Notes under the pieces: generated by a model | The model's database searches: none | What the model was told of the DNA's origin: nothing | Seen by the model: only the letters and a program-made list of their open reading frames with translations | Program-made: the position numbers and the translations under genes | Shown: positions 25,600 through 46,514 of the stretch, piece after piece | Layout of the letters: the number at the start of each line of letters is the position of its first letter | Numbering within the stretch: position 1 is the stretch's first letter | Assembly (NCBI GenBank): GCA_050179755.1 | Contig: JBFXEV010000001.1 | Span: 1,449,994-1,513,993 of the forward strand | DNA length: 64,000 nt | Origin: Candidatus Babeliales bacterium | Lineage (GTDB): Bacteria > Babelota > Babeliae > Babelales > JBFXEV01 | Direction of reading: 5' to 3'

Positions 25600-25613
25600 A
25601 AGATTCTCCATTT

Positions 25614-26492
25614 TTATTCAATAACTTCAGTTTCACTGGAATGATCGCCTTCATCACTTTCTGTATCAGATAAATGCGATAAACTTATTTTTTCTAATGC
25701 TTTTGCACGTGCTTGCTCGGCCAAATAACGCGCTACCGGTGCAGTAATAACCGCATTCACCAAAGGTCCCACGCCCGGCGTAAGCAATGACGACCAGGCA
25801 GTTTTGCCAGCCATTATACACAACGACGGCGAATAAAATTGATCACATGTTTGATTAGCTGTTGTTGCAATACCTGTTGAAATGGTTTCAAGCCATGCAG
25901 TTCCTGGCACCGATTCTGCCATCCACGAGCATAATGATGGTGCAAGCGTGTAGCTTACAATACCAATCACCGTGCTTACTAAGATGCCATCAACCACCAT
26001 TTTGACGGCCAACTTCTTGCGATATTGACCTTGTGCATACTGCTCAACCATAAGAGCACTAAAAAATTTTTTAATTTCTAAAGCATTTTCATGCGTTTTA
26101 AGAGAAAGCCACCATGCTTGATCTATAAAAATACCACCGTTGGTTACTATAAATCCTGGTGCTTCTTGCGCTTTTTCTTTATCTAATTGCAGCATAAAAA
26201 TATCTGCAGGATCAAGATCCGCTTCTTTAAGGAGTGGCGCTATTTCTGCGTATACTGCAGGGTCAAGTTCTAAATAACCTTCGGTAGCAGTAGGTATGCC
26301 GTAGGCTGCAAGTTGCTGCTTTACCGAGAAAAATTCAGGCAAGCCATAAAGATACCCTGCAATTTGCTTGGGAATACGATCAAAAATGCTTGATTTCACC
26401 TGTAAGGCAGGGATAGATACCCGCTCATTCTCCATCCCATAAAGAGGAGAAATAGCCAAAACTAGGAATAAGATTGAAAATAATCGTTTCAT
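25614..26492 (-). CDS. Secreted hypothetical protein, paralog of 24631-25599
   Basis: Shared SV..Q.A.YGI, P.VY.E...LLKE, ITN/VTN..IFID.A.WL.L, IKK, Y.GxYRxK blocks. Confidence 0.6.
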   Translation of the reverse strand: MKRLFSILFLVLAISPLYGMENERVSIPALQVKSSIFDRIPKQIAGYLYGLPEFFSVKQQLAAYGIPTATEGYLELDPAVYAEIAPLLKEADLDPADIFMLQLDKEKAQEAPGFIVTNGGIFIDQAWWLSLKTHENALEIKKFFSALMVEQYAQGQYRKKLAVKMVVDGILVSTVIGIVSYTLAPSLCSWMAESVPGTAWLETISTGIATTANQTCDQFYSPSLCIMAGKTAWSSLLTPGVGPLVNAVITAPVARYLAEQARAKALEKISLSHLSDTESDEGDHSSETEVIE

Positions 26493-26536
26493 CTTTATAA
26501 CCTCCAGATAACGATTTCTTATCTATTTGTATTAAT

Positions 26537-26565
26537 AGAGTACCATAAAGCGCTCTTTTGGTCAA
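26537..26565 (-). promoter_or_regulatory. sigma70-type promoter
   Basis: TTGACC-17 bp-TACTCT with TG extension upstream of 26492. Confidence 0.5.
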
Positions 26566-26589
26566 ATACAGGCAAATACAGGGGACAAA

Positions 26590-29500
26590 TCACTTTGCGC
26601 CAGTTATGCTTTTTTGGAAAGTAGCCTCTGGCACCACCATATAATACTGAATATTGGCCTTTTGCAATGAATGCGTAATCTTACTAACAGCTTTTATTAT
26701 GTCGTGTGATCGCTGCGGATTAGTTGTTTTACATGCCTGAGCGTCTTCATGAAGGCGGGATACTACCAGACTAATTGCATTACCTATAAAACCACAATAC
26801 GATTTCATATTTTTTACATTAGTTAGAAGCAAAAACAATGGTTCATAATGCTGCAATAAAAGCGGGTAATCACTGCCGTTGATGCAATGCATTGTTGCTA
26901 TCATGAGGCGCCATTCAACCGAATGAGACTGATAAAAATTATGCTGCTTCATACAATCAATTAATTGTTCAAACACTTTATTAGCCTGTTCTCTCTGTTC
27001 AAGTTTTTGCGTCAATAAACAGTCAAGCATAAACTTTATTAAGCGCATACCAAAAGTTTGAACAGTACCAATTGCAATATCTTTGCTAAATTGTTTTGCA
27101 ACAGTAGCTTCTATGCCACGCTCTATATGCTCAAGGGCTTTTAAAACATTAGAATCTTTGCTAATATGCACAAAAGCCATTTCAAGATGTGCAAGTGCAC
27201 TTAACCTACCCCCATCTGCTATCACTCTATCAAATAACTTTATTGCTTCATCATATTTTTTTTGCACCGCTTTCAAACCTCCAAGTGCTTGCATAGCAGC
27301 AATATGGCCATTTTTCGCTTTATGCTCTAAAAACAAAATAAGATCATCTGGATACATATAACCGCCAGCGCAAAGTTGTGATAGCTCTAGATAAAGATCA
27401 TCTGACGCATTATGAGTGCGTTGTATTAGTTCAAATTTATAGGCGATCGCTTTTTTAAAATCACCGTCCTCACGCGCAAAAGAAACTAAACGCTTAAGCG
27501 CACAAGTACTTCTATCTTTTAAGCTTAAAGCAAGTTTTTTTGACCGTTTCCTATCAGGGATTACTTCTTTCCCACATGGCAACGTGCTACCACCATATAA
27601 TCTGAGTAATAATTCTCCTGCAGCGGCTTCTTGCTCGGCAATACCTTCAAGTGCTTTAAGCGCTGCACTGAACATTTGATCGCTCATCTGCGCATTGCAA
27701 TATAATCTATCTTTCCACCAATGATAAATCCCGGTGCTATAACCAGAATCTTTAGCTTTATCGCCATAGCTCATTACAGCAGCTAAGTCCTCATTAGATG
27801 CATCCGCGCCCCCATAGTGCGCAGAACACCAGAGCATCATTATACACGCTGCACGGCCATTATTCGTGGTATCTGCAAGACGCTTAATATACTCAATATG
27901 TTTAGTAATGACATCATAAAAACCGCTTGCTTGTAAATCGCTCAGAGTAAGCTCGTGAAAAGACATACATCTAATAATGGCCTCGAGAGCGTCATTCATC
28001 TCTTTTTTATTTTTGCTCAATAGATTTTTTTCTACAAAATTATCAAGTGCCGGCACACACCCATTGAAGGCTAATATGCGTACCGATTGAAGCGCTAATG
28101 ACCGTAATTTATCACTATTAATACCTGGTATCGTGCCCGCATTAGTATGTTCCAAAGTTGGTTGCAACTCATGAAACACAACTGCCAGCGCTTCTCTGTT
28201 ACCTTGAACGTAAGGAATATATATAGTTTGATCAAACAAAAACAAGGATTCAAAGTTTCTTTCAAATTGTGCAACATGCCGCGCTTGCTCAGGCTCACTT
28301 GTTGCAGCCTCACCACTACACTTAAGAGCCTGTTGCAAATGCCTTCGTTTTGATTCCCTATCAGCTTGAAGAGCTTTATCATGCTCTGCTTCATAACTTA
28401 ACATTTTGCTCAGCAAAAATTGTGCCTGCGCACTACCTTGAGCTGCTGCTGCATCCAGGGTTCGCATCAAAAGCGCATCTTTGCAAATGGCCTGCGCTTT
28501 TTCACTTGCCATATCTTCAAAAACTACATCAATAAGGCAAAGATTCTTCAAAAATTCTTCTGTGGCCAGCGTTGGCTCTTTTACCAGCGTTCTAAAAGTC
28601 ACGCAAGCGCCTTGCTCATTTTGAAATTCACCCCCATTAAGCACGCGCCACTTCTTCATTTCCTCAGTTTCTTCTTCCTTTTTTACTACTTCTGTTGATG
28701 CTACAATGCCCAATGTACGTAATGCAACAACTAGTTCATCATAATGAGTGGCAGCTTCAGTTTTATAATCTGCATCTGCATCAACAAGATCAAGTAAGGG
28801 AAGTACTTGCAATACAAAGGGTAAGCCATGCGATTCTATATTTTCTAAATGCGTAATATCATGTACAAGCAATAAGCAAAGATCCGCGGCGAAAAATAAG
28901 TTATTGCCGCATAAGTGAACTTCAGGTGTTTTACAAAATATTTCAAGTAATTCATACACACCATGTTTGCCATCACTCAATTCAATGGCTTCTTTAAAAC
29001 ACTCAATTGCCTGCGCAGTTGATTCAGGATAACGTGCATGCAAAGTACCTAACGCTCGTAATGCAGACGGTAATTTAACTTTCGCTTTTTGCTTTATAAA
29101 TTCATATATTTCTTCTACTTGAGCAGATGAACAAAGAGGTGAATCTATCAATCGCGCCAATTGCGCACAAGATTCTTCACAGCCTGCTGATACAGCTTCT
29201 TGCAAAAGCGTCACAGCGTTACGCACGTGCATCTCTTCATGTGCGCGATCATTGCTTGCTTTATCAAGTTCTTCTTGCGCAAGAATACGCTTTGTTTCTT
29301 TAAACTCCTTCAATTTTTGCGCAAGATAATAAGCTGTTTTCCTATCTTGACCTAGAGAATAACCACAAGCAAACGTCCTTTCAGAACCATCAAAATAATG
29401 CTGTGCAAGGATAACGCCTGCGTAAGAATCGCCCATGTTATATGCACGTAATAATCTTTTCATATGCGCTTCAAATTCTTGTTTACTCATCGGTTTTAGT

Positions 29501-32073
29501 TTGCGCGGAACATCCACCGCGTTAAGCACTATTGCTCGCATGCAATTGGGGTGATCTAACTGAGCACCTTTTTCTAAAGCTGCCTCGGATTCTTCTTCTC
29601 GATCTTCATATAATAGGTATCTACTTAAATAAAAATACGCGCTTGAAAGCGTTGCTTTACATAATCTCTGTAAATCCGCCAACTCTTTATGTGCGCAAGA
29701 AAGATCATATGCTTGTTGCGCATACTGTACAGCTGTTTGCAAATGTGCTTCTTGCGTATCAGTTTGATCAGAAAGTAATTTGCACGGCGTGAGAACATGC
29801 ACCATATGAATCATACATTTAATAAAAGCAAGTTGTGTTTGTGCCCGTAGTGAATAATCAGCTCCATTCAACGAGAAAATACGAGTAAGAGTCGTAGGCT
29901 CTTTAAATACACTTAAAATACGCTCCCACGTTGCAATTGGTTCAGTATCATAATCAAATTTTAAACATTCAATACAGAGCGTAGTAGTTAAGTGCAGTGC
30001 TCGCTGATACCCTTGAATTGAACTCGAAGAGCTCAGAAACAAACGCGCACCCCAATTAATCGCTCTTATGTCGCCTGCTCCTGTTGCCAAACCCATACCA
30101 TACTCAACAAATCTTATTAAAAGATCTCTTTCTTGCACTGGTAGCGATAGAGATTCAAGCTCTATAAATTTATCAACAGCCTCAGTATATTTTTTTTGGT
30201 CGATAAAACTCAGAATCCCGCGATAAAGCACCAGCGCCTTGCAAAAAGGCTCAGCCTCTTTAATACCGCCTTTAAAAGCTAACATTGCATTTTTGAATGA
30301 CTGTTCCAATAAATCACGTTGCGCCACGGGAATATTTTGTTGCTCTTGGCCTGTATAGGCTAAACGAAACAACAACCTGCTCAAAAGATATTTTGCTTTG
30401 GGATCATTTTGTTGCGTACTTAATTTTGTGAGTGCATCCGATATGCACTGACATTTGTCTTTTTGAGTAAATACATCTGCGGATGCTTCCAAAAATCGAG
30501 TTGCAATTTCGCAACAATACGCTGCAGTTTCTGCGGTTAGCGCATCGCCATCTTTTTTAATACGCTCTTGAACGTTCCATATGCAAGCATCTAATTGGCC
30601 ATCCCGCGCAAGATGTTCCAGCAAGTCTTTTGCTCGCTCACCAATCAAACGCTCCACATAAGATTCCTGCCGATTAGCAACCAGAAGCTCACCGCATTTT
30701 TTGATAACCAATGCCAAATTGCCCTGATGATAACTATCAATAATATCCGCAAAACTACTGATTGCTTGCATCAGTTCTTTTTCTATACACGTTTGCGTAT
30801 TACCCGTTTGCGCACATTTTTTAAGGTCTTCAAAAGCCATTTTGGCATCGGGCGCTAGTAAAAAGCTGGTCATTCGTCGCAGTAATTCAATGCTTGTCAG
30901 ATGCGCCCAAATACAGCAGGCAAGTGTATTATTATTTTTAACCATGCCTGCAACAAGATCTTGAATCCCAAATTCAGCGAACGCATGCTTTACCGCATCT
31001 GTTTCTGAAGCTCGTTGTTCATGGAGAATAGCAACAATAGCTTGCAAACCTTTTGTTCTCTCTCTCTTATCACTATTTTTTAAATCCTGTGCTACCAAAT
31101 AAGCACGCGCTCTTAACGCGCCATTCTGACCAATTCGTTCAAGTACCGCATGAGCAAGTTGTTTTACCTGCACAAGAGAATTATCTTGCGAGCTTTGAGT
31201 AAGTAATCCTAAAAGATTTGTTATTGTTTCTTGATCATAGGTTCTTTTACATGCTTCAACACCCTGCATGTAAACAGAAACGGCTTCAACCAGGGGTCTA
31301 AACTCCGGATGCACGTCAAGAGCCGTAAAATATTTTTGACATCGCTCAAATTGAGCACTTTGACTATCGAGCGTTTTTTCAAGGACTGCTCGCTTGCACG
31401 CTTCTTGAAGCAGGCGATATTGCGCATCAACAGAACCTTCTTGGGCCAACTGTTCCAGTAAAGGCATATAATGTACATCCACAAGCATCGTACGCTCTAA
31501 ATGCGCTAAATCTTTAAAGGAGGGATAATAGGAAACCAGTTTTTGCAAAGCTTGTAATTGATCATAGGCAAGACAATGTTGACCTTCAAGCATAAATCGA
31601 GCAAATGAAGCTGCATGTTCATAAGGGACTTCATGTGGCTTATACAACACCGCACGTTCTGTGGCTTTAAAAAATTCAATTGCTTCTTCTTTATTGCCAT
31701 CTTCCATCGCCAATGCACCAAGCGCATACAGTGATCGCGCATCACGATACAAACTTTTGCGTGTAATGACTTTACCATCTTTAATATCTTGCCGCAGCAA
31801 TGCAACTGGCTTTGCAAGTTCTTCTAATGCACCATTAACATCTTCACCTAAAAATGCAGACTTAAACTTTACTTCATGCAGTGCATCAAGATAACTTGTG
31901 CCGCTATGCATGCCATATTTTGGAAAAGGTCGCTGAACATTAGTAGTAAGTTGTGGCAAAACCCTATAAAACGCATCACGGTGCTGCACCGTAGCGTCTG
32001 TTTGCTGATCCATACCAAAACTATTATTACATAGTACCAAGAGAAGTGTTAAATACCAAGATGTGTTGTTCAT
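26590..32073 (-). CDS. Giant secreted alpha-helical repeat protein (Sel1/TPR-like), 1827 aa
   Basis: Signal peptide SFG/MD; recurring LAQEGSVDAQYRL, AAAQGSAQAQFLL, AKNGHIAAMQALG Sel1-like motifs. Confidence 0.75.
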   Translation of the reverse strand: MNNTSWYLTLLLVLCNNSFGMDQQTDATVQHRDAFYRVLPQLTTNVQRPFPKYGMHSGTSYLDALHEVKFKSAFLGEDVNGALEELAKPVALLRQDIKDGKVITRKSLYRDARSLYALGALAMEDGNKEEAIEFFKATERAVLYKPHEVPYEHAASFARFMLEGQHCLAYDQLQALQKLVSYYPSFKDLAHLERTMLVDVHYMPLLEQLAQEGSVDAQYRLLQEACKRAVLEKTLDSQSAQFERCQKYFTALDVHPEFRPLVEAVSVYMQGVEACKRTYDQETITNLLGLLTQSSQDNSLVQVKQLAHAVLERIGQNGALRARAYLVAQDLKNSDKRERTKGLQAIVAILHEQRASETDAVKHAFAEFGIQDLVAGMVKNNNTLACCIWAHLTSIELLRRMTSFLLAPDAKMAFEDLKKCAQTGNTQTCIEKELMQAISSFADIIDSYHQGNLALVIKKCGELLVANRQESYVERLIGERAKDLLEHLARDGQLDACIWNVQERIKKDGDALTAETAAYCCEIATRFLEASADVFTQKDKCQCISDALTKLSTQQNDPKAKYLLSRLLFRLAYTGQEQQNIPVAQRDLLEQSFKNAMLAFKGGIKEAEPFCKALVLYRGILSFIDQKKYTEAVDKFIELESLSLPVQERDLLIRFVEYGMGLATGAGDIRAINWGARLFLSSSSSIQGYQRALHLTTTLCIECLKFDYDTEPIATWERILSVFKEPTTLTRIFSLNGADYSLRAQTQLAFIKCMIHMVHVLTPCKLLSDQTDTQEAHLQTAVQYAQQAYDLSCAHKELADLQRLCKATLSSAYFYLSRYLLYEDREEESEAALEKGAQLDHPNCMRAIVLNAVDVPRKLKPMSKQEFEAHMKRLLRAYNMGDSYAGVILAQHYFDGSERTFACGYSLGQDRKTAYYLAQKLKEFKETKRILAQEELDKASNDRAHEEMHVRNAVTLLQEAVSAGCEESCAQLARLIDSPLCSSAQVEEIYEFIKQKAKVKLPSALRALGTLHARYPESTAQAIECFKEAIELSDGKHGVYELLEIFCKTPEVHLCGNNLFFAADLCLLLVHDITHLENIESHGLPFVLQVLPLLDLVDADADYKTEAATHYDELVVALRTLGIVASTEVVKKEEETEEMKKWRVLNGGEFQNEQGACVTFRTLVKEPTLATEEFLKNLCLIDVVFEDMASEKAQAICKDALLMRTLDAAAAQGSAQAQFLLSKMLSYEAEHDKALQADRESKRRHLQQALKCSGEAATSEPEQARHVAQFERNFESLFLFDQTIYIPYVQGNREALAVVFHELQPTLEHTNAGTIPGINSDKLRSLALQSVRILAFNGCVPALDNFVEKNLLSKNKKEMNDALEAIIRCMSFHELTLSDLQASGFYDVITKHIEYIKRLADTTNNGRAACIMMLWCSAHYGGADASNEDLAAVMSYGDKAKDSGYSTGIYHWWKDRLYCNAQMSDQMFSAALKALEGIAEQEAAAGELLLRLYGGSTLPCGKEVIPDRKRSKKLALSLKDRSTCALKRLVSFAREDGDFKKAIAYKFELIQRTHNASDDLYLELSQLCAGGYMYPDDLILFLEHKAKNGHIAAMQALGGLKAVQKKYDEAIKLFDRVIADGGRLSALAHLEMAFVHISKDSNVLKALEHIERGIEATVAKQFSKDIAIGTVQTFGMRLIKFMLDCLLTQKLEQREQANKVFEQLIDCMKQHNFYQSHSVEWRLMIATMHCINGSDYPLLLQHYEPLFLLLTNVKNMKSYCGFIGNAISLVVSRLHEDAQACKTTNPQRSHDIIKAVSKITHSLQKANIQYYMVVPEATFQKSITGAK

Positions 32074-32105
32074 GTAATTCTTTTAAATAAAATGTTGAAA
32101 ATATA

Positions 32106-33269
32106 TTAGCGACCTACTAACATAAAAAGTGCTTGCACAAATTGTTCAACTTGTGCCATAGTATTACCATAATAAAAACTTACACGCACTGCGCCAGCAA
32201 TGCCCCATTTGCGCCACATTGGTTGCAAGCAAAAATCTCCTGCGCGCACACAAATATTTTTCGTATCAAGAAATGCCGCAATGTCATGAGGATGAAAGCC
32301 ATCAATGTTAAAACTGACCAAATGACCGTGCTGTGCAAGTTCTTGGTGGGGTCCATATATATGAACGCCAGGGATCTTTTTAAGGCCTTCAAGTGTTGCA
32401 CGGCACAACGATGCTTCAAGTTGCTGCTGCACACTACGATCTGTTGATTCTATAAGCGTTATTGCTGCACCCAAGCCAATCACTTGCGCAATGGGTGGCG
32501 TTCCGGCTTCAAACTTGCGTGGTGCGGGCAAATACGTTGCGCTGTGCCAATCAGCACGGTATACCATGCCACCACCAAGTTCATAGGGTGGCGTTTCATC
32601 ATGCAATTCTTTTTTAATATAAAGTATACCAACACCTGTAGGCCCCAGCATTTTATGCGCTGAAAACACTAAAAAGTCACATTGTAGCTTTTGTACGTTT
32701 ATTTGCTGATGTGGCACCGATTGGCATGCATCAATCAGCATTTTAGCACCAACACGCTGAGCATGCTTGGTAATTTGCCCTATATCATTGCGCGTACCCA
32801 AGCCGTTAGAAACATGTACCACCGCAATTAATTTAGTACGCTCAGTAACGAGAGTTTCAAGCGCTTTATATTCAAGCGTGCCATCAGATAAAATGGGTAT
32901 AAATTTTAGAATCGCACCCGTACGCTCAGCAACACGCTGCCAAGGGAGCAAATTCGAGTGATGCTCCATTTCTGTCAATAAAATCTCATCGCCCTTTTTA
33001 AGATGTGCCATTGCCCACGTGCTAGCTACTAAATTAATTGATTCAGTAGCTCCCTGTGTAAACACAATTTCAGCAACATGTCGTGCATGCAAAAACCGCG
33101 CTATCTGCGCGCGCACGCCTTCGTAGCGCGCGGTTGCTTGCTCGGCAAGTTGATAAATACCACGATGCACCGGCGCATATTCATGCAGATAAAAGTGGGA
33201 AATGGCATCCACCACCGGTTTTGGCGTTGGGCTAGATGCTGCATTATCAAAATAAATAGAGTGTTTCAT
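32106..33269 (-). CDS. sufS: SufS-type cysteine desulfurase
   Basis: YFDNAAS, VHRG, MEHHSN, SAHKMLGPTG (PLP Lys), FEAGTP, VRAGDFC. Confidence 0.93.
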   Translation of the reverse strand: MKHSIYFDNAASSPTPKPVVDAISHFYLHEYAPVHRGIYQLAEQATARYEGVRAQIARFLHARHVAEIVFTQGATESINLVASTWAMAHLKKGDEILLTEMEHHSNLLPWQRVAERTGAILKFIPILSDGTLEYKALETLVTERTKLIAVVHVSNGLGTRNDIGQITKHAQRVGAKMLIDACQSVPHQQINVQKLQCDFLVFSAHKMLGPTGVGILYIKKELHDETPPYELGGGMVYRADWHSATYLPAPRKFEAGTPPIAQVIGLGAAITLIESTDRSVQQQLEASLCRATLEGLKKIPGVHIYGPHQELAQHGHLVSFNIDGFHPHDIAAFLDTKNICVRAGDFCLQPMWRKWGIAGAVRVSFYYGNTMAQVEQFVQALFMLVGR

Positions 33270-36200: not shown

Positions 36201-38761
36201 GCCCTTGGAGCAGGAACACCATCTTGAAAAGCTTTTTTACAATAAGCAGTCGCTTTTTCAAGCAACTGAGTTTCAGTACTTTGATTATCGTCAATAAAGC
36301 GACAGGGCACCAATGCTTGCACCACATAACAATGTGCTAATAAATAAGCTATAGGATTATGCAAACCTTTATATTTACTGTTTTCTAATGTTTTTTCAAT
36401 TTTGGCAACAATAGAAAATTGCCTGAAAGGTTCAAATGATGTTTTAAAATCACGTATTTGAGAATAATCTACACCAAGAAAAGCTTCAAACAGTTCTGTA
36501 CATATATGAACAGCATGATCAACTTTTTGTTTGTCATCTGAACATAACAAATCTGCTATATACCAAGGCCCTGCAATTTGATGATTCGCTTGCACATAGT
36601 GCATCATCTGATATTTTGCAAAAGCCTGCACTAATTTTCTTTCAGCAGATGGCAATTGAACCGTCAATAAATCCAATAATTGTTTTACTATAACATCAGC
36701 TTTTTTTGGAGCATCAGCTTGTTCAAGTAATGCCAAAATACCACGATACAACATCACTGCTCTAGTGAATTCCTGTACTTGCTTTTTTTCAGACCCTTGC
36801 TGTGCTGCATTTGGATCTTGGTTACTTTTTATAACTTCACCTGCCAATTTCACTACATCATCTAAAAGACTTCTATTCTCTACAGCCAACCCAGTTTGTT
36901 CACACCCTTCATGATATAATCTAAACAAAAGCCTACTTAATAAATATTTGGCTTGTGCATTGTTACTCCGCCTTGCAATATCATCGAGCGCCGTGCGTAT
37001 GCGCAAACAGGTATCATCTGCTGCACTGGGCGTTCGTTGTGCCAAATAAAGTTCACCTATTTGTATACCATATGCGATCGTTTCTTCTGAAAGCACTTCT
37101 TGTTCTGTATGCATGCGCTGCACTTTAACACAGCAAGCATCAACCTGTTTTTGTTCAACTAGTCTTTCAAGCAGTTGCTCGGCACGATCACGCATTGCAC
37201 AAGTTAATTGATCACCACCAAAAACTAAATTAACAATATCAATAAGTTGGCGCGCCGCTGTTGGTTTTTGTGCATAAAAATCAAAGACCGCTTGAGCAAA
37301 ACTTTGTATAATTTGCAAGGTATTTTTAAATTCGCTTTCTACCATCAAACCACTTTTTGCATAGCGCAGTATACGCTTATATGCTTCTCTTTGCTGAGTA
37401 TCATCTACCAATGCTTCATCGCTCAGCGCATTTTTGCAGGCCCATTCTGCCCAAAATGTGCATACAGTGGGCTGATTTTGCTCGGCCATGCGAACAAGGC
37501 TATCAAGCAGGCCAAATTCTTTGAGTTGTTGCTCCATACATCTATCATTTTGCTGCATGCATGTACGGACCAGAGCTTCTGCTTGTACAACAGCTTGCGC
37601 TTTTCTAGTCTTATTTTTGGAAGATAGTTGCTGTTGGACTCCAAAGCATGTTGCGCGTAAATCGCCAATTGTTGCAAGTTTATCCAGCAACTGCCTACCC
37701 AATTGCTGCACGTGCAAAATTACGGGTACATTAGAAGAGCTTGCTAATAACTCAATTAAACAAGCTGATGCAAGATCAAGGTTTTGTTCTTCGTATGCAC
37801 CTATAGCTGCCATATAACAGGTAAGTGCTTTGCCTAAATCACTATGCGTTGGATCTTGTACTAACGATGCACAATATGCCGCGAGCGGCCTTATGGCAGC
37901 CAGTTGCTTTTTTATTTTCTTTTCAAGTGCTTGTTCAAACAATGCGTTCACCATAGCCTGCTGCGCTTCAACATCACCTGCATCTGCAAGCTGTTTAATT
38001 GCAGGCAAATGCCCATCAGCTGCAAGTGCCGTACACAATAGGTGCGCTACAGGCTGCCAACAGGGATATAATAGTGCTTTATTTTGTAACAAGAGTAAAT
38101 TACTAAACGCTTGTTGATATTGCTCTTGCGACCAATAACGTGTGCATTGCGAAGCATAGAAAATAGGTTCTTCATGAGATCTATATTCATTGCATGTAAG
38201 TACTGCTTGACGTAATGCATTTTCAGCTTCAAAAACCTGACTTGCCTCAAGCAATTTTATGCCACGTGCAAAATCAATAAGAGGGAAATATTGCGTGCCC
38301 TTTTTTGTTACTAAAGAACCTGCAATTAATTCCGTACGTTGTGACGCTAAAGGCTCTGCAGCTTTTTCTAAAGCGATTATAGGATCATCACTTTGCAATG
38401 CTGCCTGGAATTTACATTCAAAGAGCGCATCATGAACACTTGTACCACTATGCATGCCATAACAAGGAATAGGCCGTTGTATAACCGTAGTAAGCTGCGG
38501 TAATAAAGGAGCCACTTCACTACCAAACAAAGAAGGGGTCATTTTTGTGCCAAAGGATCCTTCGACTCGCTTCGCTTGCTCCCAGCCTGCGCATAAAGGC
38601 CGCCCATCCTGAGCAGGTCGAAGGACGGCGGGCATAGCAGTATGAGCGGACTCAGGCAACATTGCAAGAACATCACTTGTGCATGTTAATAAGCCCAAAG
38701 TAAGACATGTTACATATGTAAAATGTGACATACTATAAGCATATTTCTTTATACCAGCCAC
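33266..38761 (-). CDS. Giant secreted alpha-helical repeat protein (Sel1/TPR-like), 1831 aa, paralog of 26590-32073
   Basis: Signal peptide VLA/ML; collinear shared blocks LPQLTT..QRP.P.YGMHSGTS, AKYLLSRLLFRL, CMRA, FACG. Confidence 0.75.
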   Translation of the reverse strand: MAGIKKYAYSMSHFTYVTCLTLGLLTCTSDVLAMLPESAHTAMPAVLRPAQDGRPLCAGWEQAKRVEGSFGTKMTPSLFGSEVAPLLPQLTTVIQRPIPCYGMHSGTSVHDALFECKFQAALQSDDPIIALEKAAEPLASQRTELIAGSLVTKKGTQYFPLIDFARGIKLLEASQVFEAENALRQAVLTCNEYRSHEEPIFYASQCTRYWSQEQYQQAFSNLLLLQNKALLYPCWQPVAHLLCTALAADGHLPAIKQLADAGDVEAQQAMVNALFEQALEKKIKKQLAAIRPLAAYCASLVQDPTHSDLGKALTCYMAAIGAYEEQNLDLASACLIELLASSSNVPVILHVQQLGRQLLDKLATIGDLRATCFGVQQQLSSKNKTRKAQAVVQAEALVRTCMQQNDRCMEQQLKEFGLLDSLVRMAEQNQPTVCTFWAEWACKNALSDEALVDDTQQREAYKRILRYAKSGLMVESEFKNTLQIIQSFAQAVFDFYAQKPTAARQLIDIVNLVFGGDQLTCAMRDRAEQLLERLVEQKQVDACCVKVQRMHTEQEVLSEETIAYGIQIGELYLAQRTPSAADDTCLRIRTALDDIARRSNNAQAKYLLSRLLFRLYHEGCEQTGLAVENRSLLDDVVKLAGEVIKSNQDPNAAQQGSEKKQVQEFTRAVMLYRGILALLEQADAPKKADVIVKQLLDLLTVQLPSAERKLVQAFAKYQMMHYVQANHQIAGPWYIADLLCSDDKQKVDHAVHICTELFEAFLGVDYSQIRDFKTSFEPFRQFSIVAKIEKTLENSKYKGLHNPIAYLLAHCYVVQALVPCRFIDDNQSTETQLLEKATAYCKKAFQDGVPAPRAVRAWKLLDKINYVRSQAYLRNGQIEKAKSLLAESAGLEYPTCMRACAMLALEQPREAAVCLDKQTFDAHVLMLERAYELGDKQAGAILAEHYYDGRLTRFACGNHIEKDLKRALELAVALGDVYPQTARILGFLEFYKVVQNPKNKGRRVDLSRAVTLLMQSARDGQKHAYRHLEEIVLSEWITQEVAQIANDFIVEKAAEHIPEALCALAGIFLADRDQRRIEYAIQSYEDAIRYSDGRLGHMELANLYCRRNACKAAQHCLAMIELGARDGGAPMEQSQVIGNVLGALLGYQGAQDDKAVADTLREEIITKLARLGIEITTSVQAAAESPAALEATALSMTVDIAQAMETDPNAFSRMQDFAESNPYAQHTLSLFYLKKAKNGSAQPEAQQQRCDDFLQAIHYASRALTADVKNENYKNQLIASYYELYHYYRTVLIPQVAFDQESLNGGLGVINKTLEVLLVCNLPEQEIMSIKQEAAHCIRNLASCGCVQAMKLVLATQFKDVVPEVQQESVQVVFRGCHALSQMREEEWESSGVEACLDSHIEDINKIATTGNGHASFIVACWMEHKAKKLDKNNNQRYSLVYLEQSVRQGCIEAQPILHMTYLLRDSTLSAKQCAELIAQLECYVRNHGLTDSPSYGVIHFVIKMYRDGMVLPCRFRVSKDMARAKELALRWKNNSGAALMTLATLAQEENDLDAFFDYAFRLYQIGLFTLDDMLKFCVEYKRFPKKLEEYAQVESKKGKVTMLRALCGVWVARQEYEKAIAWCTDLLADGFAQASMELVEIYLNPQFAGLDIERALTYLAICMNHIKEMRFEIQTVANVVNQCTHRLLELEKFAQSQRHEKLKIQVSRAMDTLVRYGEEFITDGYESVEFLCIHIINQCAMSTFDFKKIVDTFERVFEFHKIQPHEGDVYYITNALKLLLAKHTSVLQGLDPSERAQIAESNLQMKRLNTLVLGSDIKLKMTLFTDKKKK
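38559..38649. repeat. Composite family A palindromic repeat inside a coding sequence
   Basis: CCTTCGACTCGCTTCGC...CCGCCCATCCTGAGC..GTCGAAGGACGGCGGGC...ATGAGCGG; near-identical core at 59139-59258. Confidence 0.85.
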
Positions 38762-38769
38762 AGTATCCT

Positions 38770-41700
38770 TTATTGCGCTCTACGTAATTTATTTTGTAAA
38801 AGAGTAAGCACCTGTTGTTGTCTCTTTATTATGTTTTTATCTTCTTCTGAACAAGAACTTACTTGCAACGCTTCTAAAGCCGTATTGGTAGTCTGTACTA
38901 TAGAATACAATAAATTAGAAATATTTGCTTCTTTAGAATTTTTAGCAACATTTGCGCATATAAAAACAAGCTTGGTGGCCATATGAGCTCGTACTGCTAA
39001 AGTTTGGCCATATTGACCGTTCAGCCAATAGATAACTTGATCTTGCGCTACTTTCATTATTCTTTCTTTACACACTAAATCATCGACTGCTTGAACATTT
39101 TCTGCAGCTTTTGTTAAAATGGTGACCACATTATCAAAGTTGGCATTTTTTGTTCCTAACCATAATAACGTTAGCTTAACACTAAAATAACTATGATACG
39201 CAAGAGCTCGTTTCATCACATCAATATCCTCACTCTGCATTATTACTACGTGCAGTAATGCAAGCATTTTTTCAAGTTGTTCAAGTGAAGGTTGCTTCAT
39301 ATTATTTGCTAATGGAACAACCTCTCCTGCACCCGCTGCTTGTATTAGATTGACAATTGTTTGTACGCGATCGACTTCTTGCCGAACGAATAATCTATCA
39401 AAAGCGTCAAACGCTCTTTGGCAATGTTCTACCACTTCAGTAAGCTGCAAGAAACCTTGTTGATCCAACAATGCTCGTGCTTTATATGATTCATGTATAC
39501 ATTCCATATCCGCGCCTTTATAAGTGGCAATTTCTTGGGATAATTGAGCATAGTGTTTATCTGCAAATAACACAGAAAGCAATAATCTATGCGCTTCCTC
39601 TGAACTATCTTTAATACGTTCCAGCAGCTCCAGACCGCGTTCTCGCAACTTTTTTGAAAGTTTATTTTTAAAAGTACGGTTTGTACTGTAATTAATGTAC
39701 ATTCGTGCAACTTCTAAAATCTCCTCAACTGTTGCTTGCTCACGCAGAACATACTGCGTTACTTCATGAAAAATTTCTTGTGACTTATCTTGAAGCACAA
39801 GTATATCAATATACATGCAATGAATTGCAGGCTCAGTATCTTTATATGATTTAATCAGATCTCTTGCCTTTGCAAGCAATAAGTTTCTCTCATGGCCCAT
39901 CACTGCCCGAGCCTGAGCCATATAAATATTTGCAAGTTTTGCGCGATTATTTGGGAAATCTTTAGAATCATCTATAATCAATTTTTGCAAGTAATCAACT
40001 GCCTTTGCAAGATCTTCTTTCATAAGATGAATTTTAAAACCAGCATAACAGTCTGCCATAAACTGCAATGAAGGGCGATGCTTGCCTGAACGTGATAATT
40101 GCTCCATCAAAGCAACCCCCTCTTGCCGCAATGCACTTTGCCCACTATCCATAAGAACCCGAGCAAATTCATATTTCACATCAATAGTAGGATTCAATTC
40201 CAACGCTCGTTTATAAAGCAATCGTACTTGTTCCATGTTTACTTCTTTATCAAGAGCGCGGGCTTGCGTTACTTTAACCAATGCAAGTTGTTTTTGGCGC
40301 TCAGCAGTTTTGCCGCCCTGTTCTTGCAATGCTCTTGTTAATAAGGGATCCGCTTCAATCGTTAGATCTAAAAAATCTTGATTCATCCCTGCCTCTCTAT
40401 AGCAACAACCCACCATTAAAAGATGTTCTCCTGATTGAGCAGTTCGAGCAGCTTTTAATATGGTAGGAAAGAGTGCCCTATATTTCCCGTGATGCAAATT
40501 TTTTAAATGCATATCTTTGGTGCTACGCAATGCCTGATCCACTAGTGAAAATAATTTGCATACATAATCAGCATTTTGCTGCGTAAGATGTTCTTGTTGC
40601 ACCCAATGTTCAATTACTCCAAGCAAAGCATCCAAATAAATAATACGATGCTGCTCTGGCAAACTATCTATAGCTATTTCTTTAAGCAACAAATCATCTT
40701 TAACCGGATCATCAAACGCATCATTACCAGCTTGCACAGGATATAAAATAAATTGTAAAGCCTTCTTTTGATGTGCTAATGCGGTTCTTTCTTTAAGCAA
40801 AAATCCACGGCCAAGATGAGCCCTTAATCCAAATACGTTGATCAATACATTTTGAATGCTTATATCTTTCCTAAAACGCTCCATATAGCGCAAAACGCCA
40901 GACGTATTAAGAAATTCTAAATAGAAAGTATCAATCGTATGCTTATTACTCACAAAATATTTTTCGAGACTATGCACTGTACCTGCCAATGCAGCAATGT
41001 ATTTTTTATACTCGTCATCGTTATATACTTCAATTTCAAAAGCAGCTTCTTTACCACATGCAAGAGCATGTTGATACATAACAACACCATTAGATGAATG
41101 AACTTTACTCATATCTTGTGAAAGTACGTGTAAATTCCACTCAAGTGCACTTAGCTTAAAACAACCTGCAAGTCTATACAAAGAATTAGGAGGAGCATTT
41201 CTAAATTTTTCTAAAGCCATAGTATAAAACACAAATGCAAGATCAGGTTCAATTTCTCGTAGTTCGTCTCCAACTCGTTCTGCCGCAAATGGATTGCCCA
41301 ATCGTGCCGCGTGTTTAAGACACTCTAGCCCTTCAAAGTATAATTCATCATCTTCCTCTACTATTAATTTTTTACCCTTCAAATACAGATCTTGCACCTT
41401 TTGATAATCAACTTGTACTGCAACTGATTGATCAGCAGCTGCTTCCATTTCTAGGGCACTTGAAACTAAAACGCTCTCTTGATCAGCCAGGCACGGGCCA
41501 AGAAGCACCTGCGCTTGAATATCTTCTTGAGACCTCTGTTTAGGCTCATATGCTGCTAAGTTTTTTTGAATCTCTTCAAACAATGCTTTGCTTGGTTCAT
41601 ATGATCCTACAACAGATTTTTCAGCGTAAGCAAGAGCTCGTTTTAATTCATGAGAAGGATCTGCAGCATTCTCTTCTTGATCACTAATTGCTAAAAAGAA

Positions 41701-42366
41701 ATGATGTTTTGCCAGAACATACTGCGCATGCGCATTATTATTTGCCTGCGCAAGCCGTTCTATATCATCTAAAATCTCACTATTTTCATTAAATACCAGG
41801 GAATGCTCTCTATAGTTTTTTTCCTTTTGATCAGTTTCTTTAAGTGTAATGAGATCCTCAAAGCGTTCAAGCCCTTGATCAACATTGGACAATAAGGGAC
41901 TGTTAATTAATTGCTTCACCAGATAAAATTTAGAAAGTGGATGATCCTTTTCGTCAGCAAGAATCCTTACACGGCCAATTGCTTCTTGCCGCATTCTTAG
42001 TAAAAGAGGGGTGTCTCTAGGACCTTTTATAACGTCATCAAGATATTTAAAAACGAGATCTGACTCTTTCAATGCAATGTCTGCCTGTAAACCCATAATA
42101 AAAGCTTTAAATGAAGCAAGTTCTGCAGTAGAACCATTTGGATTATCATTAAGTGCTCGTTTTGTTGCTCGCAAAGCAATTTTTAAATGCTTATCTAAGG
42201 CCGGACCTGTTGTAATTAAAACATTTTCTAAAGCCGAGCGCGCCGTCAGTAGATCTTTGCTCGGACTATGAGAATTAGGCACAACAAGCGCCTTACTTTT
42301 TTTCATACCATGTACTGGCAGCGTACACATCAAACATAACAAAGCTGGATAGAGCGATCTCATCAT
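38770..42366 (-). CDS. Large secreted Sel1/TPR-like repeat protein, about 1200 aa
   Basis: Signal peptide VHG/MK; HAARLGNPFAAERVG, AHAQYVLAK, LYKRALELNP repeats; alternative start 42381. Confidence 0.7.
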   Translation of the reverse strand: MMRSLYPALLCLMCTLPVHGMKKSKALVVPNSHSPSKDLLTARSALENVLITTGPALDKHLKIALRATKRALNDNPNGSTAELASFKAFIMGLQADIALKESDLVFKYLDDVIKGPRDTPLLLRMRQEAIGRVRILADEKDHPLSKFYLVKQLINSPLLSNVDQGLERFEDLITLKETDQKEKNYREHSLVFNENSEILDDIERLAQANNNAHAQYVLAKHHFFLAISDQEENAADPSHELKRALAYAEKSVVGSYEPSKALFEEIQKNLAAYEPKQRSQEDIQAQVLLGPCLADQESVLVSSALEMEAAADQSVAVQVDYQKVQDLYLKGKKLIVEEDDELYFEGLECLKHAARLGNPFAAERVGDELREIEPDLAFVFYTMALEKFRNAPPNSLYRLAGCFKLSALEWNLHVLSQDMSKVHSSNGVVMYQHALACGKEAAFEIEVYNDDEYKKYIAALAGTVHSLEKYFVSNKHTIDTFYLEFLNTSGVLRYMERFRKDISIQNVLINVFGLRAHLGRGFLLKERTALAHQKKALQFILYPVQAGNDAFDDPVKDDLLLKEIAIDSLPEQHRIIYLDALLGVIEHWVQQEHLTQQNADYVCKLFSLVDQALRSTKDMHLKNLHHGKYRALFPTILKAARTAQSGEHLLMVGCCYREAGMNQDFLDLTIEADPLLTRALQEQGGKTAERQKQLALVKVTQARALDKEVNMEQVRLLYKRALELNPTIDVKYEFARVLMDSGQSALRQEGVALMEQLSRSGKHRPSLQFMADCYAGFKIHLMKEDLAKAVDYLQKLIIDDSKDFPNNRAKLANIYMAQARAVMGHERNLLLAKARDLIKSYKDTEPAIHCMYIDILVLQDKSQEIFHEVTQYVLREQATVEEILEVARMYINYSTNRTFKNKLSKKLRERGLELLERIKDSSEEAHRLLLSVLFADKHYAQLSQEIATYKGADMECIHESYKARALLDQQGFLQLTEVVEHCQRAFDAFDRLFVRQEVDRVQTIVNLIQAAGAGEVVPLANNMKQPSLEQLEKMLALLHVVIMQSEDIDVMKRALAYHSYFSVKLTLLWLGTKNANFDNVVTILTKAAENVQAVDDLVCKERIMKVAQDQVIYWLNGQYGQTLAVRAHMATKLVFICANVAKNSKEANISNLLYSIVQTTNTALEALQVSSCSEEDKNIIKRQQQVLTLLQNKLRRAQ

Positions 42367-42371
42367 GAACC

Positions 42372-43085
42372 TTACTGGCATATTAGTAATTCATGCGTAA
42401 TACGCGCAAACTGTTCTTGAGTCAAATTAAATTCATCACTAAAAAAACCCCTGATTAATAATTCTTTTGCTTTTTGTTCGTCTATACCGCGTGATTTCAG
42501 ATACACTACTTGATCGTCGTTAAAACTACTGGTGGCTGTACCATGTTTACATTGCACTGAATTAGTATGCACTTCTAAGCTTGGCATAGCTACTGCTCGC
42601 GCAGTATGTGAAAGCAATACATTTTTATTATAAAGTGCAGCATCAGTTCCGTGTGCACGTTGAGCAATGTTAATAATGCCATGATAGTTAAATAGCGCTT
42701 CGCCTGCCAAAGCACATTGCACCATGCTATAACTTTTTGTATGCGGAGCTTGATGATCTTGCACAAGAGTAATGTGATGTTGCATGGTACCATTTAGTGC
42801 ATAGCAACCGTGAATAGTTGCTTGTGCCCCTTCCTCTTCTAAAATAACTTCTATACTAATTTCACGCGCGCACGGACCTATTGCAATAAACGTGAGTTTG
42901 AGATTACCATCTCGTTTACACACAAAACGATATCTAGAAGAAGTATGCGCGCGAGCGGAATCTAACGTAAGCACATAGTCAAGGCGCTCACAATCACGCA
43001 CAATTATTTCTACCAATGGAACTTCCAAAAGGGAAGGCTCTAATTCGGTTGCGTTATCCAATTGAATTCTCCATTTCAAGCGCAA
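42372..43085 (-). CDS. sufD: Fe-S cluster assembly protein SufD (short form; start uncertain)
   Basis: [22 protein letters not shown] motifs; follows sufB. Confidence 0.85.
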
Positions 43086-44409
43086 TCAATCGATTAATCT
43101 CTACGGCATATTCCATAGGCAAGAATTTAACAAATGCTTCAATAAAACCATTTACAATAAGAGTGCTTGCTTGTGTTTGCGTCAAACCTCGGCTCATTAC
43201 ATACACAAGCTGTTCATCAGAAATTTTGCTTACAGACGCCTCGTGGCCAATATCTACCTGTTCTTCCCGCACATCAACCGTAGGATAGGTATCAGAGCGC
43301 GAACGATCATCCATTATAAGCGCATCGCATTGCACACGTGCCTTCACGTGATGCGCGCCTTTAATAACTTTTAATAAGCCACGGTAACTAGATCTGCCAC
43401 CATTTTTTGAAATAGATTTTGCAACCACCGTAGAGCTAGTGTGCGGTGCCAAATGAATCATTTTTGCACCAGAATCTTGATGCTGCCCTTTGCCGGCAAC
43501 AGCAATAGACGTGACATGCCCTTTGGCGCCACGCTCTTTAAGAATAATAGCAGGATATTTCATAGTAACTTTGCTGCCAAAATTACCATCGATCCATTCA
43601 ACTTTAGCATCCTGATAGGCAACAGCTCGTTTGGTTACTAAATTATATACGTTGGTTGACCAATTTTGTATGGTGGTATAACGCACATGCGCACCTTCAA
43701 GTGCTATAATTTCTACCACTGCGCTATGCAGGGAGCTTGTTCGATACACAGGCGCACTACAGCCTTCTACATAGTGCACAAAGCTACCTTTATCAGCAAT
43801 AATAAGAGTGCGCTCAAATTGCCCCATTTCTTGTTGATTCATTCTAAAGTATGCTTGCAAAGGCAAATCTATATGCACACCTTCAGGTACATATACAAAG
43901 CTTCCTCCACTCCAAACAGCCGAATTTAACGCAGCAAATTTATTATCATGCGCAGGCACCACGCTTGCAAAATATTTTTTAACTAAATCAGGGCAACGCT
44001 CTAAAGCTTGAGTAATATCACAAAATATAACACCCTTTTGCTCCCATTCGTCTTTTAATTTTTTATAGATCAATTCTGATTCAAGTTGTGCGCCAACACC
44101 AGCCAAATAAGCACGCTCGGCTTGCGGAATGCCCAACTTTTCAAACGTATTCTTCATAGAATCAGGCACATCATCCCATGATGTTCTTGTTTCTTGAACC
44201 GGCTTAACATAATAATGAATATCATGATGATTAAGCTCAGATAAATCTGCACCCCACGCTGGCATTGGCATGCTTAAAAATCGTTCAAATGCTTTTGCGC
44301 GAAACTCACGCATCCATAGTGGTTCATTTTTTTGTTCACCAATCAGACTAATCATAGATGCATCCAGGCCTTTACGGCTCTTATATGCATAATTAACCGA
44401 TTGCATCAT
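43054..44409 (-). CDS. sufB: Fe-S cluster assembly protein SufB
   Basis: [46 protein letters not shown]. Confidence 0.97.
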
Positions 44410-45121
44410 AACCCCGTTCTTTAATAATAGAAAGTAATGAAACATTGCCAGCACACACAATCTTGCCTTGTTTTAATATATGCACCACATCAGGCGAGAG
44501 AGTTTCTAAAAATGGCTGATAATGAGTAATACAAATAAGTGCCATTGTGGGATTTTGCTCCCGCACGATATGCAATGCACGCGTTACTACTTTTATAGCA
44601 TCAACATCAAGCCCTGAATCTAACTCATCAAGAATAGCTATTTTTGGTTTTAAAACTAAAAGTTGCAACAATTCAAGCTTTTTCTTTTGCCCGCCAGAAA
44701 ATCCATCATGTACATGACGCTCTGCAAATTCATACGGAATTTCAAGAAGATCCATGGCCTCGATGAGTTGTGCATAGAAATCACCAATCGTAGAATCAGA
44801 GTTGCATAGTGCACGATACGCTTCATGTAAAAACTGCAAAACGGTAACACCTTGAACAAGCATAGGATGCTGAAATGCCAAGAAAAGGCCCAATCTTGCT
44901 CGTTTTTCAACTGAAAGATCTAAAATGTTCTGATTATTAATAACAACGCTGCCCTTTATTGCCTGATACTGTGGATGGCCAATAAGTGTAAGGGCAAGAG
45001 AACTTTTGCCCGATCCGTTAGGGCCCAGAAGCGCATGTACGGTGCCCGGCTGCACTACAAGATTAATATCTTCTAACACTAGCTTTTCTTGTATCGTGAC
45101 AGAAAGCGAACTAATTTCCAT
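44393..45121 (-). CDS. sufC: Fe-S cluster assembly ATPase SufC
   Basis: [32 protein letters not shown]. Confidence 0.95.
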
Positions 45122-45235
45122 ATTCAAAAGTTCCTTGAGTGTTATACTATACTTATTACATTGCTACCTAGCGTAGCAGAAATGGCGCAAAGCCGCTACT
45201 AGAAGCACATGGAGCAATACCAAAGGAGTATAGCT

Positions 45236-46027: not shown

Positions 46028-46079
46028 GATATTCCAAAACAACCTATGTTTTAGTTGAATTATTATGATTATTCAATTC

Positions 46080-46364
46080 TTAACCACCAGTACAAAGATT
46101 ATATGTATCAGGAAATCCTTGCTGTTTCTTGCTAAATCTTTTTAAATGAGCCTCTATCATTAAGGGTTCATTTATGCGTTCAAAAAAAAATGTATCCGTT
46201 TTTTCAGGATCAAATTTTATTTTTTGTTCAATTTTATCAAATATGCAAAGTGCTTTTACTAACTTTTTTGTAACTCCTGTAGTTATTTTTTCATATGATT
46301 TTGTTTCTATCAAGTAGTTTACAGTTGTTGCATCCTCAAATACTTTATAAAAATCTATATTCAT
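46080..46364 (-). CDS. Putative immunity protein, copy 3 (94 aa)
   Basis: VKALCIFDK, FD.EKTD.FF, EP.MIEAHLK, FP..Y...TGG shared with copies 1 and 2. Confidence 0.7.
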   Translation of the reverse strand: MNIDFYKVFEDATTVNYLIETKSYEKITTGVTKKLVKALCIFDKIEQKIKFDPEKTDTFFFERINEPLMIEAHLKRFSKKQQGFPDTYNLCTGG

Positions 46365-46370
46365 TAATTT

Positions 46371-46424: not shown

Positions 46425-46514
46425 TCCGTTTGTCGTCAAAAATTGAAAACATAATACACTAGGGTAAATTGTAGGCTTTTTTATAGCCAACACCCAAATT
46501 TTTGAGATAAAACA

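Follow-up and report, generated by a model that had tools for sequence, protein, structure and literature searches.

Giant genes for predicted alpha-solenoid proteins lie within the suf gene string of a Babeliales bacterium, at a position used recurrently across the order

Introduction

Operons for the SUF machinery of iron–sulfur (Fe–S) cluster assembly are normally contiguous, and the machinery itself (SufBC2D and SufS) acts in the cytoplasm. Here we analyse a stretch of 64,000 nucleotides (nt), hereafter the window, from the genome of a Candidatus Babeliales bacterium, in which the suf genes are interleaved with three genes for proteins of about 1200 to 1830 amino acids (aa). The locus is like the sufABCDSE operon of Escherichia coli and the sufCDSUB-type operons of Gram-positive bacteria in having SufC, SufB, SufD and SufS, encoded on one strand in the usual C-B-D...S order; it differs from both in that 14.6 kb of unrelated giant genes is interleaved and that SufD is a core-only protein of 237 aa. 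In contrast to the situation around the E. coli operon, the genome (G000) has no match to SufE or SufA and none to a Fur or Rrf2/IscR regulator.

The giant proteins recall a second group of described systems, the Sel1-like repeat and tetratricopeptide repeat (TPR) proteins of intracellular bacteria, such as LpnE, EnhC and LceB of Legionella and the Hcp proteins of Helicobacter. They share with these a signal-peptide-like N-terminus, a paired antiparallel helix array by prediction and a host-associated lifestyle of the organism; unlike them, they are far larger, stay below the Pfam thresholds and, among the Babeliales species genomes searched, occur in one genus only.

Closer to the organism, Dependentiae possess many genes for signal-peptide-bearing ankyrin, WD40 and TPR proteins that are held to be host-manipulation factors (PMC6561590, PMC4776705). 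TM6 genomes encode ankyrin, WD40, F-box and leucine-rich repeat as well as TPR proteins (PMC4776705), and in Chromulinavorax 44% of the coding sequences carry signal peptides and 98 ankyrin proteins are encoded (PMC6561590). The giants come from the same organism group and belong to the same general class of secreted protein-interaction repeats, but a placement of such genes inside a suf operon is not described in the main texts of these two papers, from which the terms "suf", "Fe-S" and "iron-sulfur" are absent. A literature search on Dependentiae/Babeliales terms together with suf terms likewise gave nothing combining both among the matches listed. The order-wide positional pattern that we report below is new here and goes beyond what the main texts of PMC6561590 and PMC4776705 describe.

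Results

Three giant genes are interleaved with suf genes on one strand

The genome that contains the window is a single contig of 1,525,295 bp. On the minus strand of the window, nine consecutive open reading frames (ORFs) run from position 45127 down to 24631, in the order sufC-sufB-sufD (237 aa)-[1203 aa]-[1831 aa]-sufS-[1827 aa], followed by two smaller genes. An earlier note on this DNA, made from the letters alone, had proposed this one-strand order, and both the ORF layout and the Pfam assignments agree with it. The features are as follows.

45122..45208, minus strand: presumed suf promoter region, a divergent intergenic stretch of 81-87 nt upstream of sufC
44393..45127, minus strand: sufC, ABC ATPase (ABC_tran PF00005, E 2.6e-23, 83.6 bits against a cut-off of 25); likely start ATG 45121
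43054..44460, minus strand: sufB (SUFBD_core PF01458, E 8.9e-82, 274.5 bits; PF19295, E 9e-12)
42372..43085, minus strand: sufD, short form, 237 aa (SUFBD_core PF01458, E 1.3e-44, 152.9 bits, profile positions 37-232)
38770..42381, minus strand: giant A (P0001), 1203 aa as the longest ORF; likely start ATG 42366 or 42363
33266..38761, minus strand: giant B1 (P0002), 1831 aa, predicted alpha-solenoid of family B; GTG start with AAGGA upstream
32106..33269, minus strand: sufS, class-V aminotransferase/cysteine desulfurase (Aminotran_5 PF00266, E 1.1e-133, 446.3 bits, residues 5-377 of 387 aa)
26590..32073, minus strand: giant B2 (P0003), 1827 aa, predicted alpha-solenoid of family B
24631..26492, minus strand: two paralogous genes on the same strand (292 and 326 aa), each with a signal-peptide-like N-terminus, directly behind giant B2

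Together the three giant genes measure 14,592 nt, close to the 14.5 kb estimated in the earlier note, and their GC content (0.38-0.41) is like that of the rest of the genome (0.391). They are among the 16 ORFs of at least 1000 aa that the genome holds in a total of 1345, with B1 and B2 ranking second and third in size. Among the ORFs between 21.4 and 50.8 kb, none gave a Pfam match to a transposase or integrase, in line with the earlier impression that mobile-element genes are missing nearby, although several ORFs in this interval have no Pfam match at all.

The genes are closely packed throughout. The sufD stop at 42372 is followed by an ATG at either 42381 (10-nt overlap) or 42366 (5-nt gap); 8 nt separate the P0001 stop from the GTG of B1 at 38761, with an AAGGA located 4 nt upstream of it; the B1 stop and the sufS start share an ATGA at 33266-33269; and 32 nt lie between sufS and the ATG of P0003 at 32073. 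Direct reading of the sequence thus reproduces the overlapping or tiny junctions (5 bp, 8 bp, ATGA, 32 bp) noted before. Scanning 26000-45600 for consensus sites revealed, at the junctions, neither a terminator-like nor a strong promoter-like site that might isolate the giants from the suf genes. Over this interval, 36 promoter-like sites were counted, fewer than the 56.9 of shuffled sequence, and 20 terminator-like sites, near the expected 17.7. As judged from sequence features, the giants are probably co-transcribed with the suf genes.

The gene string is confirmed by independently built contigs and by a second species

In all three DNA runs that were examined, a single contig of 36.6-36.9 kb spans 26000-45600 with 0 differences. 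These runs belong to one study and are possibly the source of this genome; the contigs were built independently. Misassembly, which the earlier note had wished to see checked, is excluded.

The arrangement recurs in a second species of the same genus, a Candidatus Babeliales bacterium known from a metagenome-assembled genome (G001). There the string reads sufC-sufB-sufD (227 aa)-P0004 (944 aa)-P0005 (1185 aa)-P0006 (1792 aa)-sufS-P0007 (1823 aa)-315 aa-351 aa, which is the order of the first species plus one additional paralog, P0004, of family A. The flanks are common to both species as well and hold hydrolase, pyridine-nucleotide oxidoreductase and VTT-domain genes, so that the synteny sought in the earlier note extends from the flanking hydrolase to the VTT-domain gene.

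Between the two species, SufB is 89%, SufS 75%, SufC 69% and SufD 49% identical; the corresponding values for the giants are 38% for A (P0001/P0005), 33% for B1 and 32% for B2. As cross-pairs of B1 and B2 are only 27% identical, their positional orthology holds. Because the reading frames, 3.6-5.5 kb long, have remained open in the two species at an identity of 32-38%, we regard the giants as real genes. By the same identities, they evolve far faster than the Suf proteins. In G001, B1 (L007:12629-18007) and B2 (L008:2199-7670) are 59-74% identical over their first ~400 residues and ~30% identical beyond, which points to a tract of gene conversion between the copies that flank sufS. The B1/B2 pair of the first species shows only 46% and 39% identity within the first 200 residues.

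The giants form two genus-restricted families with a predicted TPR/Sel1-type fold

By sequence comparison the giants fall into two families, A (P0001) and B (the paralogs P0002 and P0003). In BLASTP, P0002 and P0003 are 30% identical over 1120 aligned positions (E 9e-106); no significant BLASTP match links family A to family B. A homology of A and B was considered on the basis of hhalign (57.5% or 28% probability, one stretch), which we take as repeat-level similarity only.

The earlier note had described three Sel1/TPR-like proteins, and this description holds at the level of the fold; it fails at the Pfam thresholds, and the three proteins are not one family. Sel1 (PF08238, gathering score 30.7 bits) gave no match to P0001, P0002 or P0003 even at E<=10, and the best Sel1 score within the families, 14.5 bits for P0007 of G001, is below the cut-off. 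The best TPR match, TPR_1 on residues 112-136 of P0003, is also sub-threshold (24.3 bits versus a cut-off of 27.8), and P0001 has no Pfam family at E<=0.01. However, in searches against the PDB the family A profile matched designed consensus TPR proteins at E 2.6e-5, and the family B profile matched CTPR-rv4 at positions 1518-1654 (E 1.1e-5). AlphaFold2 modelled family A, minus the signal-like N-terminus, with 58 helices and no strands (mean predicted local distance difference test [pLDDT] score 69.6), and residues 21-1200 of the family B protein P0003 as all-alpha to about residue 1100 of the model (pLDDT 74.8), with helices throughout residues 92-1100. The top Foldseek matches of family A were 4buj (Ski2-3-8 complex), 7dkh (Ctr9/Paf1 complex) and 8fgw (IFT-A complex), at E ~1e-8 and template modelling (TM) scores of 0.15-0.2; family B matched Paf1 (Ctr9), Ski and IFT-A complex entries, the Sel1-repeat protein 6ok3_B (TMt 0.44) and SEL1L complex entries, E values over both families ranging from 1e-8 to 1e-6. 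The nearest ESM Atlas clusters of the giants are Sel1/TPR as well (0.90-0.91). These models support an assignment of the giants to the TPR/Sel1-type alpha-solenoids as a fold class, not as members of the Pfam families.

At the N-terminus of all three giants, a hydrophobic run closes with G or A and is followed by M and an acidic or polar residue, giving the putative cleavage sites ...VHG/M, ...VLA/M and ...SFG/M (the slash marking the presumed cut). Inspection thus agrees with the earlier view of secreted proteins, and the giants are probably exported via the Sec pathway. A run ending in [AGSC]-M-[DEQNHKST] is found in 105 of the 755 ORFs of the genome that have an N-terminal hydrophobic run (e.g., ...AFG/MDP and ...AHA/MDS); elsewhere the pattern occupies 1.0% of 8-residue windows. 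Examples in the window are the N-termini of the minus-strand genes at 42381, 38761, 32073, 26492 and 25611, and the pattern is present too in secreted repeat proteins of other Babeliales. It could represent a lineage-typical cleavage-site motif or an internal alternative start. We detected no metal- or cluster-binding Pfam domain or Cys motif in the giants and saw no regular disulfide-pair pattern; some cysteines of family B are invariant, e.g., C903 in 11 sequences.

Profiles of families A and B each found 2 of 261 Babeliales species genomes, namely the two species above, and among these genomes both families are, by profile search, restricted to the genus. We therefore describe A and B as two new genus-restricted protein families, defined by sequence. 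A hidden Markov model (HMM) of the family B N-terminal part, run against 1.84 billion representatives, retrieved 10 proteins at E<1e-30 (1215-1847 aa plus one fragment) and four proteins of ~650 aa at E ~1e-12; the remaining matches were generic Sel1-type hits at profile positions ~927-1030. Further family B representatives (P0011-P0015) lie on Logan contigs of 9.5-43 kb, and two pairs of strong matches have equal longest contigs within the pair (31,220 and 43,411 nt), which suggests that each pair lies on one common contig. A scan of JGI metagenomes with an 11-sequence family B alignment gave 74 pattern matches, of which 0 were confirmed, and a word-indexed search of 5.8 billion proteins with P0003 returned only the two proteins of its own genome. 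One of the distant relatives, P0017 (652 aa, L037:4373-6406, plus strand), resembles the middle of family B (E 1.7e-12) and sits between murD and ftsW, which makes it a further repeat protein within a conserved cluster of genes; the metagenome contig in question bears an ankyrin gene as well.

Unrelated giant genes recur behind sufD in other Babeliales

The position behind sufD was followed through the order in two surveys. In the first, SufB, SufD and SufS were located in 61 Babeliales genomes, of which 48 yielded SufB; the other 13 had no SufB match and kept a SufS-like gene. Among the 48, the spacing of sufD (or sufB) and sufS was within 2 kb in 16 and 4-12 kb on the same strand in 8; it exceeded 30 kb in 6, and the genes were on different contigs in 18. 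The ORFs behind sufD were read in 28 of these genomes, and the 16 with short gaps were counted by coordinates. The second survey covered ~16 kb downstream of sufB in 50 further genomes, chosen for long contigs among 150 listed. In all, 94 genomes were examined, with four of the 48 from the first survey left out; a few loci end shortly behind sufD.

We call a genome slot-positive when at least one of the first two ORFs behind sufD is on the same strand and encodes 1000 aa or more. This applies to 15 of the 94 genomes, from 6 families, distributed as follows.

Family f1 (that of the window): 2 of 2 slot-positive (G000, G001)
Family f11: 7 of 7 slot-positive (G059, G029, G011, G045, G132, G133, G134)
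Family f2: 1 of 3 slot-positive (G038)
Family f12: 2 of 11 slot-positive (G030, G149)
Family f19: 2 of 23 slot-positive (G203, G246)
Family f3: 1 of 15 slot-positive (G080)
Other families: 0 of 33 slot-positive

The occupants fall into at least 10 clusters unrelated by BLAST. Those of f11, G203 and G080 have Sel1 and/or TPR Pfam matches, part of them above the cut-off (Sel1: G029, 69.3 bits; G080, 55.4 bits, E 6.9e-15; G203, 38.6 bits, E 1.3e-9) and the rest weaker. The slot of G038 holds three ankyrin paralogs, and the occupants of G030 and G149 combine tectonin with Methyltransf_FA. In G246 (L060, C1:353600-371000) the order is sufB-[1747 aa]-sufD-[1750 aa]-sufS, the two giants being paralogous and without Pfam match; here, therefore, even the sufB-sufD junction is split. 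The ankyrin giants of G038 (L014:2223-12382, minus strand) each include a ParE_toxin stretch (E 6.5e-6 to 2.7e-4), which in two of the three is just above the 23-bit cut-off.

Near misses are G244, where TPR proteins (900 and 839 aa) occupy the slot, and G110, with three opposite-strand ORFs of at least 1000 aa. Opposite-strand inserts also occur in G039, G033, G136 and G197; those of G039 and G033 are, by Pfam, ankyrin and WD40-like proteins and a glycoside hydrolase. In the second survey, same-strand ORFs of at least 1000 aa made up 9 of 50 slot ORFs versus 8 of the 556 remaining ORFs of these loci (Fisher p 1.3e-6, odds ratio 15), an enrichment that is inflated by the non-independence of related genomes; counted fairly, there are about 7-8 distinct slot-positive lineages.

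A common ancestry of the window giants and the occupants in other families was considered and is not claimed, as hmmsearch and hhalign returned only local Sel1/TPR-type matches. Nor could we uphold, within the genome of the window, a rule that giants sit in housekeeping operons: nine other regions were checked and a single further case was seen, behind mreC. It is an ankyrin-repeat ORF of 1289 aa (L045:3924-7793; G000:C1:1023923-1027792, plus strand), which follows dus and mreC on the same strand after a 110-nt gap and has a signal-like N-terminus.

The genome gave no match to SufE, an A-type carrier or Fur- and Rrf2/IscR-family regulators

In the window, Pfam identified all of SufC, SufB, SufD and SufS. 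The SufS query found only one cysteine-desulfurase-like match in the genome, and Pfam gave no match there for SufE, for Fe-S_biosyn (A-type carrier, SufA) or for Fur-family and Rrf2/IscR-family genes. A NifU_N gene of the SufU/IscU type (80.1 bits) lies in the window at 13725-14159 on the minus strand, 12.4 kb from the suf string and outside the operon. SufB is widespread in the order (220 of 261 Babeliales genomes at E<=1e-40). As neither Fur nor Rrf2/IscR was found and there is only one SufS-like match, suf may be a constitutive housekeeping operon. The same findings weaken the proposal of the earlier note that effectors have been placed under an iron- or oxidative-stress-responsive SUF regulation.

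Pfam found no N-terminal domain in SufD, only the core domain. SufD measures 237 aa here and 227 aa in G001; sufD-labelled ORFs range from 167 to 564 aa across Babeliales. The likely start of sufC, the in-frame ATG at 45121, is preceded by AAGGAA 9 nt upstream. Farther upstream of this ATG, stretches common to both species of the genus can be recognized by eye (GGTAGCA..ATGT and TA.AGTATA.AACACT.A.GGAAC).

Other features of the window

Downstream of P0003, a 97-nt gap with a GGAGG (Shine-Dalgarno) precedes the genes of 292 and 326 aa. These have no Pfam match, are 28% identical to each other and share 58% and 50% identity with their positional counterparts in G001 (315 and 351 aa); they are possibly the tail of the same transcription unit as the suf string. 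On the other side of the string, the GC content falls to 0.321 at 46001-48000, versus ~0.39 elsewhere, and the minus-strand ORFs of this interval (137, 95, 94 and 600 aa) have no Pfam match.

Discussion

We suggest that the position behind sufD has been used again and again as a slot, probably transcribed by read-through, for genes of secreted host-interaction proteins that take no part in Fe-S assembly, a reading that we consider fairly likely. Lineage-specific giant-solenoid genes would have settled in the single suf operon of this reduced-genome Babeliales (Dependentiae) bacterium and duplicated there. The sufCBD block would be kept intact, with the position behind sufD tolerating additional genes. 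As same-strand genes with almost no spacer and no terminator, the occupants of the slot could be reached by read-through transcription that starts at the promoter upstream of sufC; for sufS, the ATGA overlap might couple translation to that of the giant before it. In this way an indispensable housekeeping operon would lend its expression to the giants. The encoded proteins would be exported from the cytoplasm and may bind other proteins as scaffolds, either at the cell envelope or inside the host cell, and they would stand outside Fe-S chemistry. They evolve fast and would exchange modules by gene conversion. In other Babeliales the same slot has been filled repeatedly by unrelated giant repeat proteins; in the present genus both solenoid families occupy it, duplicated around sufS.

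Several observations weigh against this account. Most genomes have an empty slot, the distance from sufD to sufS being within 2 kb in 16 of 48 genomes of the first survey and the two genes being directly adjacent in 19 of 50 of the second, and the latter is a long-contig selection, not a random sample. Most of the other giants of the genome have secreted or unknown genes as neighbours and are not part of housekeeping operons. AlphaFold2 confidence is moderate (69.6 and 74.8), the underlying alignments comprise 3-4 sequences, and the family B model ends at residue 1200; because the Foldseek TM scores are low, as is common with long solenoids (0.15-0.27 for the top matches), support extends only to the fold class. 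Export was read from inspected N-termini, and co-transcription from spacing and consensus scans. Tight junctions, moreover, carry only mild weight, since a distance of 40 nt or less separates 52% of the same-strand neighbour pairs of this genome (median 33 nt), and the string of G001 holds one gap of 187 nt (P0004/P0005) with room for a promoter.

The last two points equally favour the possibility that the giants are mere neighbours of the suf genes, driven by promoters of their own inside the preceding coding sequences and placed where they are by leading-strand packing and a locally permissive site. The cumulative GC skew falls steadily and the window genes are mostly on the minus strand, as such packing would have it, and promoter-like hexamer pairs do occur within ORFs, e.g., at 42710-42681 inside sufD (10 of 12 matches). 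The opposite-strand inserts of G039, G033, G136, G197 and G110 indicate that the slot also accepts genes that cannot be read through. However, the ATGA overlap leaves sufS no room for a promoter outside B1, and this gene, the sole match to the SufS query, stands behind 9.1 kb of giants, so that transcription must cross the giants or start within them. Promoter-like sites are also scarcer than in shuffled sequence, and same-strand giants are enriched in the slot. We therefore judge mere neighbourhood to be quite unlikely.

Alternatively, one giant Sel1/TPR gene may have inserted at the sufD-sufS junction in an early Babeliales ancestor, to diverge, duplicate and often be lost or replaced thereafter; its long retention would then imply a selected link with suf expression. 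Eleven of the 15 slot-positive genomes (f1, f11, G203 and G080) have occupants with Sel1/TPR Pfam matches or, in f1, a predicted TPR/Sel1-type fold, all with signal-peptide-like N-termini. With 32-38% identity within a single genus, orthology between families could be invisible. In a 15-sequence set, the family B HMM (profile 1440-1590) matches residues 1491-1646 of a 1857-aa protein of G029 (i-E 3.7e-10), and an overlap or near-overlap with the sufS start is seen again in G059, G029 and G038. Yet profile-profile comparison yields only repeat-level similarity: family B and the f11 cluster reach 84.7% probability over 76 columns and the others stay below 30%, no better than family B against the generic Sel1 giants P0021-P0026 (28-85%), controls that had been picked for matching the family B profile. 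The ankyrin and tectonin/Methyltransf_FA occupants cannot be homologs, genus g22 includes both G038 with three ankyrin giants and G022 with adjacent sufD and sufS, and most f19 and f3 genomes have no occupant. On balance a single ancient insertion appears unlikely to us.

A functional coupling of the giants to Fe-S biogenesis, through acquisition of host iron or sulfur or by scaffolding or delivering clusters, resembles the link between host iron/sulfur acquisition and cluster assembly that the earlier note had offered. It could draw on the interleaving with sufD and sufS kept in two species, on the invariant cysteines of family B, on the truncated SufD and on the missing SufE and A-type carrier matches. 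Nevertheless, we hold it to be highly improbable, because the giants look exported, in contrast to the cytoplasmic SufBC2D and SufS, carry no detected metal-related domain or Cys motif, are absent from 259 of 261 Babeliales genomes, compared with SufB in 220 of 261, and are replaced elsewhere by ankyrin or tectonin proteins. The distant relative P0017 lies between murD and ftsW, away from suf genes, the giants evolve far faster than the Suf proteins, and nothing ties them to iron or sulfur chemistry. An artefact, be it misassembly or decayed non-coding remnants, has practically no chance of accounting for the locus: we found no point in its favour, and against it stand the identical spanning contigs of three runs (possibly the source samples), the independent synteny in G001 and uninterrupted ORFs of 1203-1831 codons that are conserved at the protein level. 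The interpretation of the earlier note is, in sum, partly supported: its structural side, a probable co-transcription, stands, and its regulatory side loses support.

The preferred reading, a slot behind sufD filled repeatedly by secreted proteins, can be extended, although we advance the extension only tentatively and think it rather doubtful. Across Babeliales, the slot might be a selected "expression slot", in which giant secreted proteins of any repeat class are captured for guaranteed, possibly infection-timed, read-through expression from the only Fe-S assembly operon; or else the slot might hold a single ancient giant Sel1/TPR gene that evolves ultra-fast and has kept its synteny with sufD and sufS from early Babeliales on. 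In both cases, an essential housekeeping operon would be acting as a chassis for effector expression throughout an order of protist parasites.

The locus is a combination of known kinds, a suf operon and the secreted repeat proteins of an intracellular bacterium, and gives no pointer to new Fe-S biochemistry. Its interest lies with the organisms. Dependentiae are widespread, mostly uncultured parasites of protists, and we know of no account of how their effectors are regulated. If the reading given here is true, an essential operon tolerates foreign coding sequence of 9-14 kb that separates its scaffold genes from the desulfurase gene, and this would affect the ratio of sufS to sufBCD expression. 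Families A and B add two new, very fast-evolving candidate host-interaction factors and, if giants systematically hitch-hike on the suf operon, this would provide a testable rule for the placement and expression of host-interaction genes.

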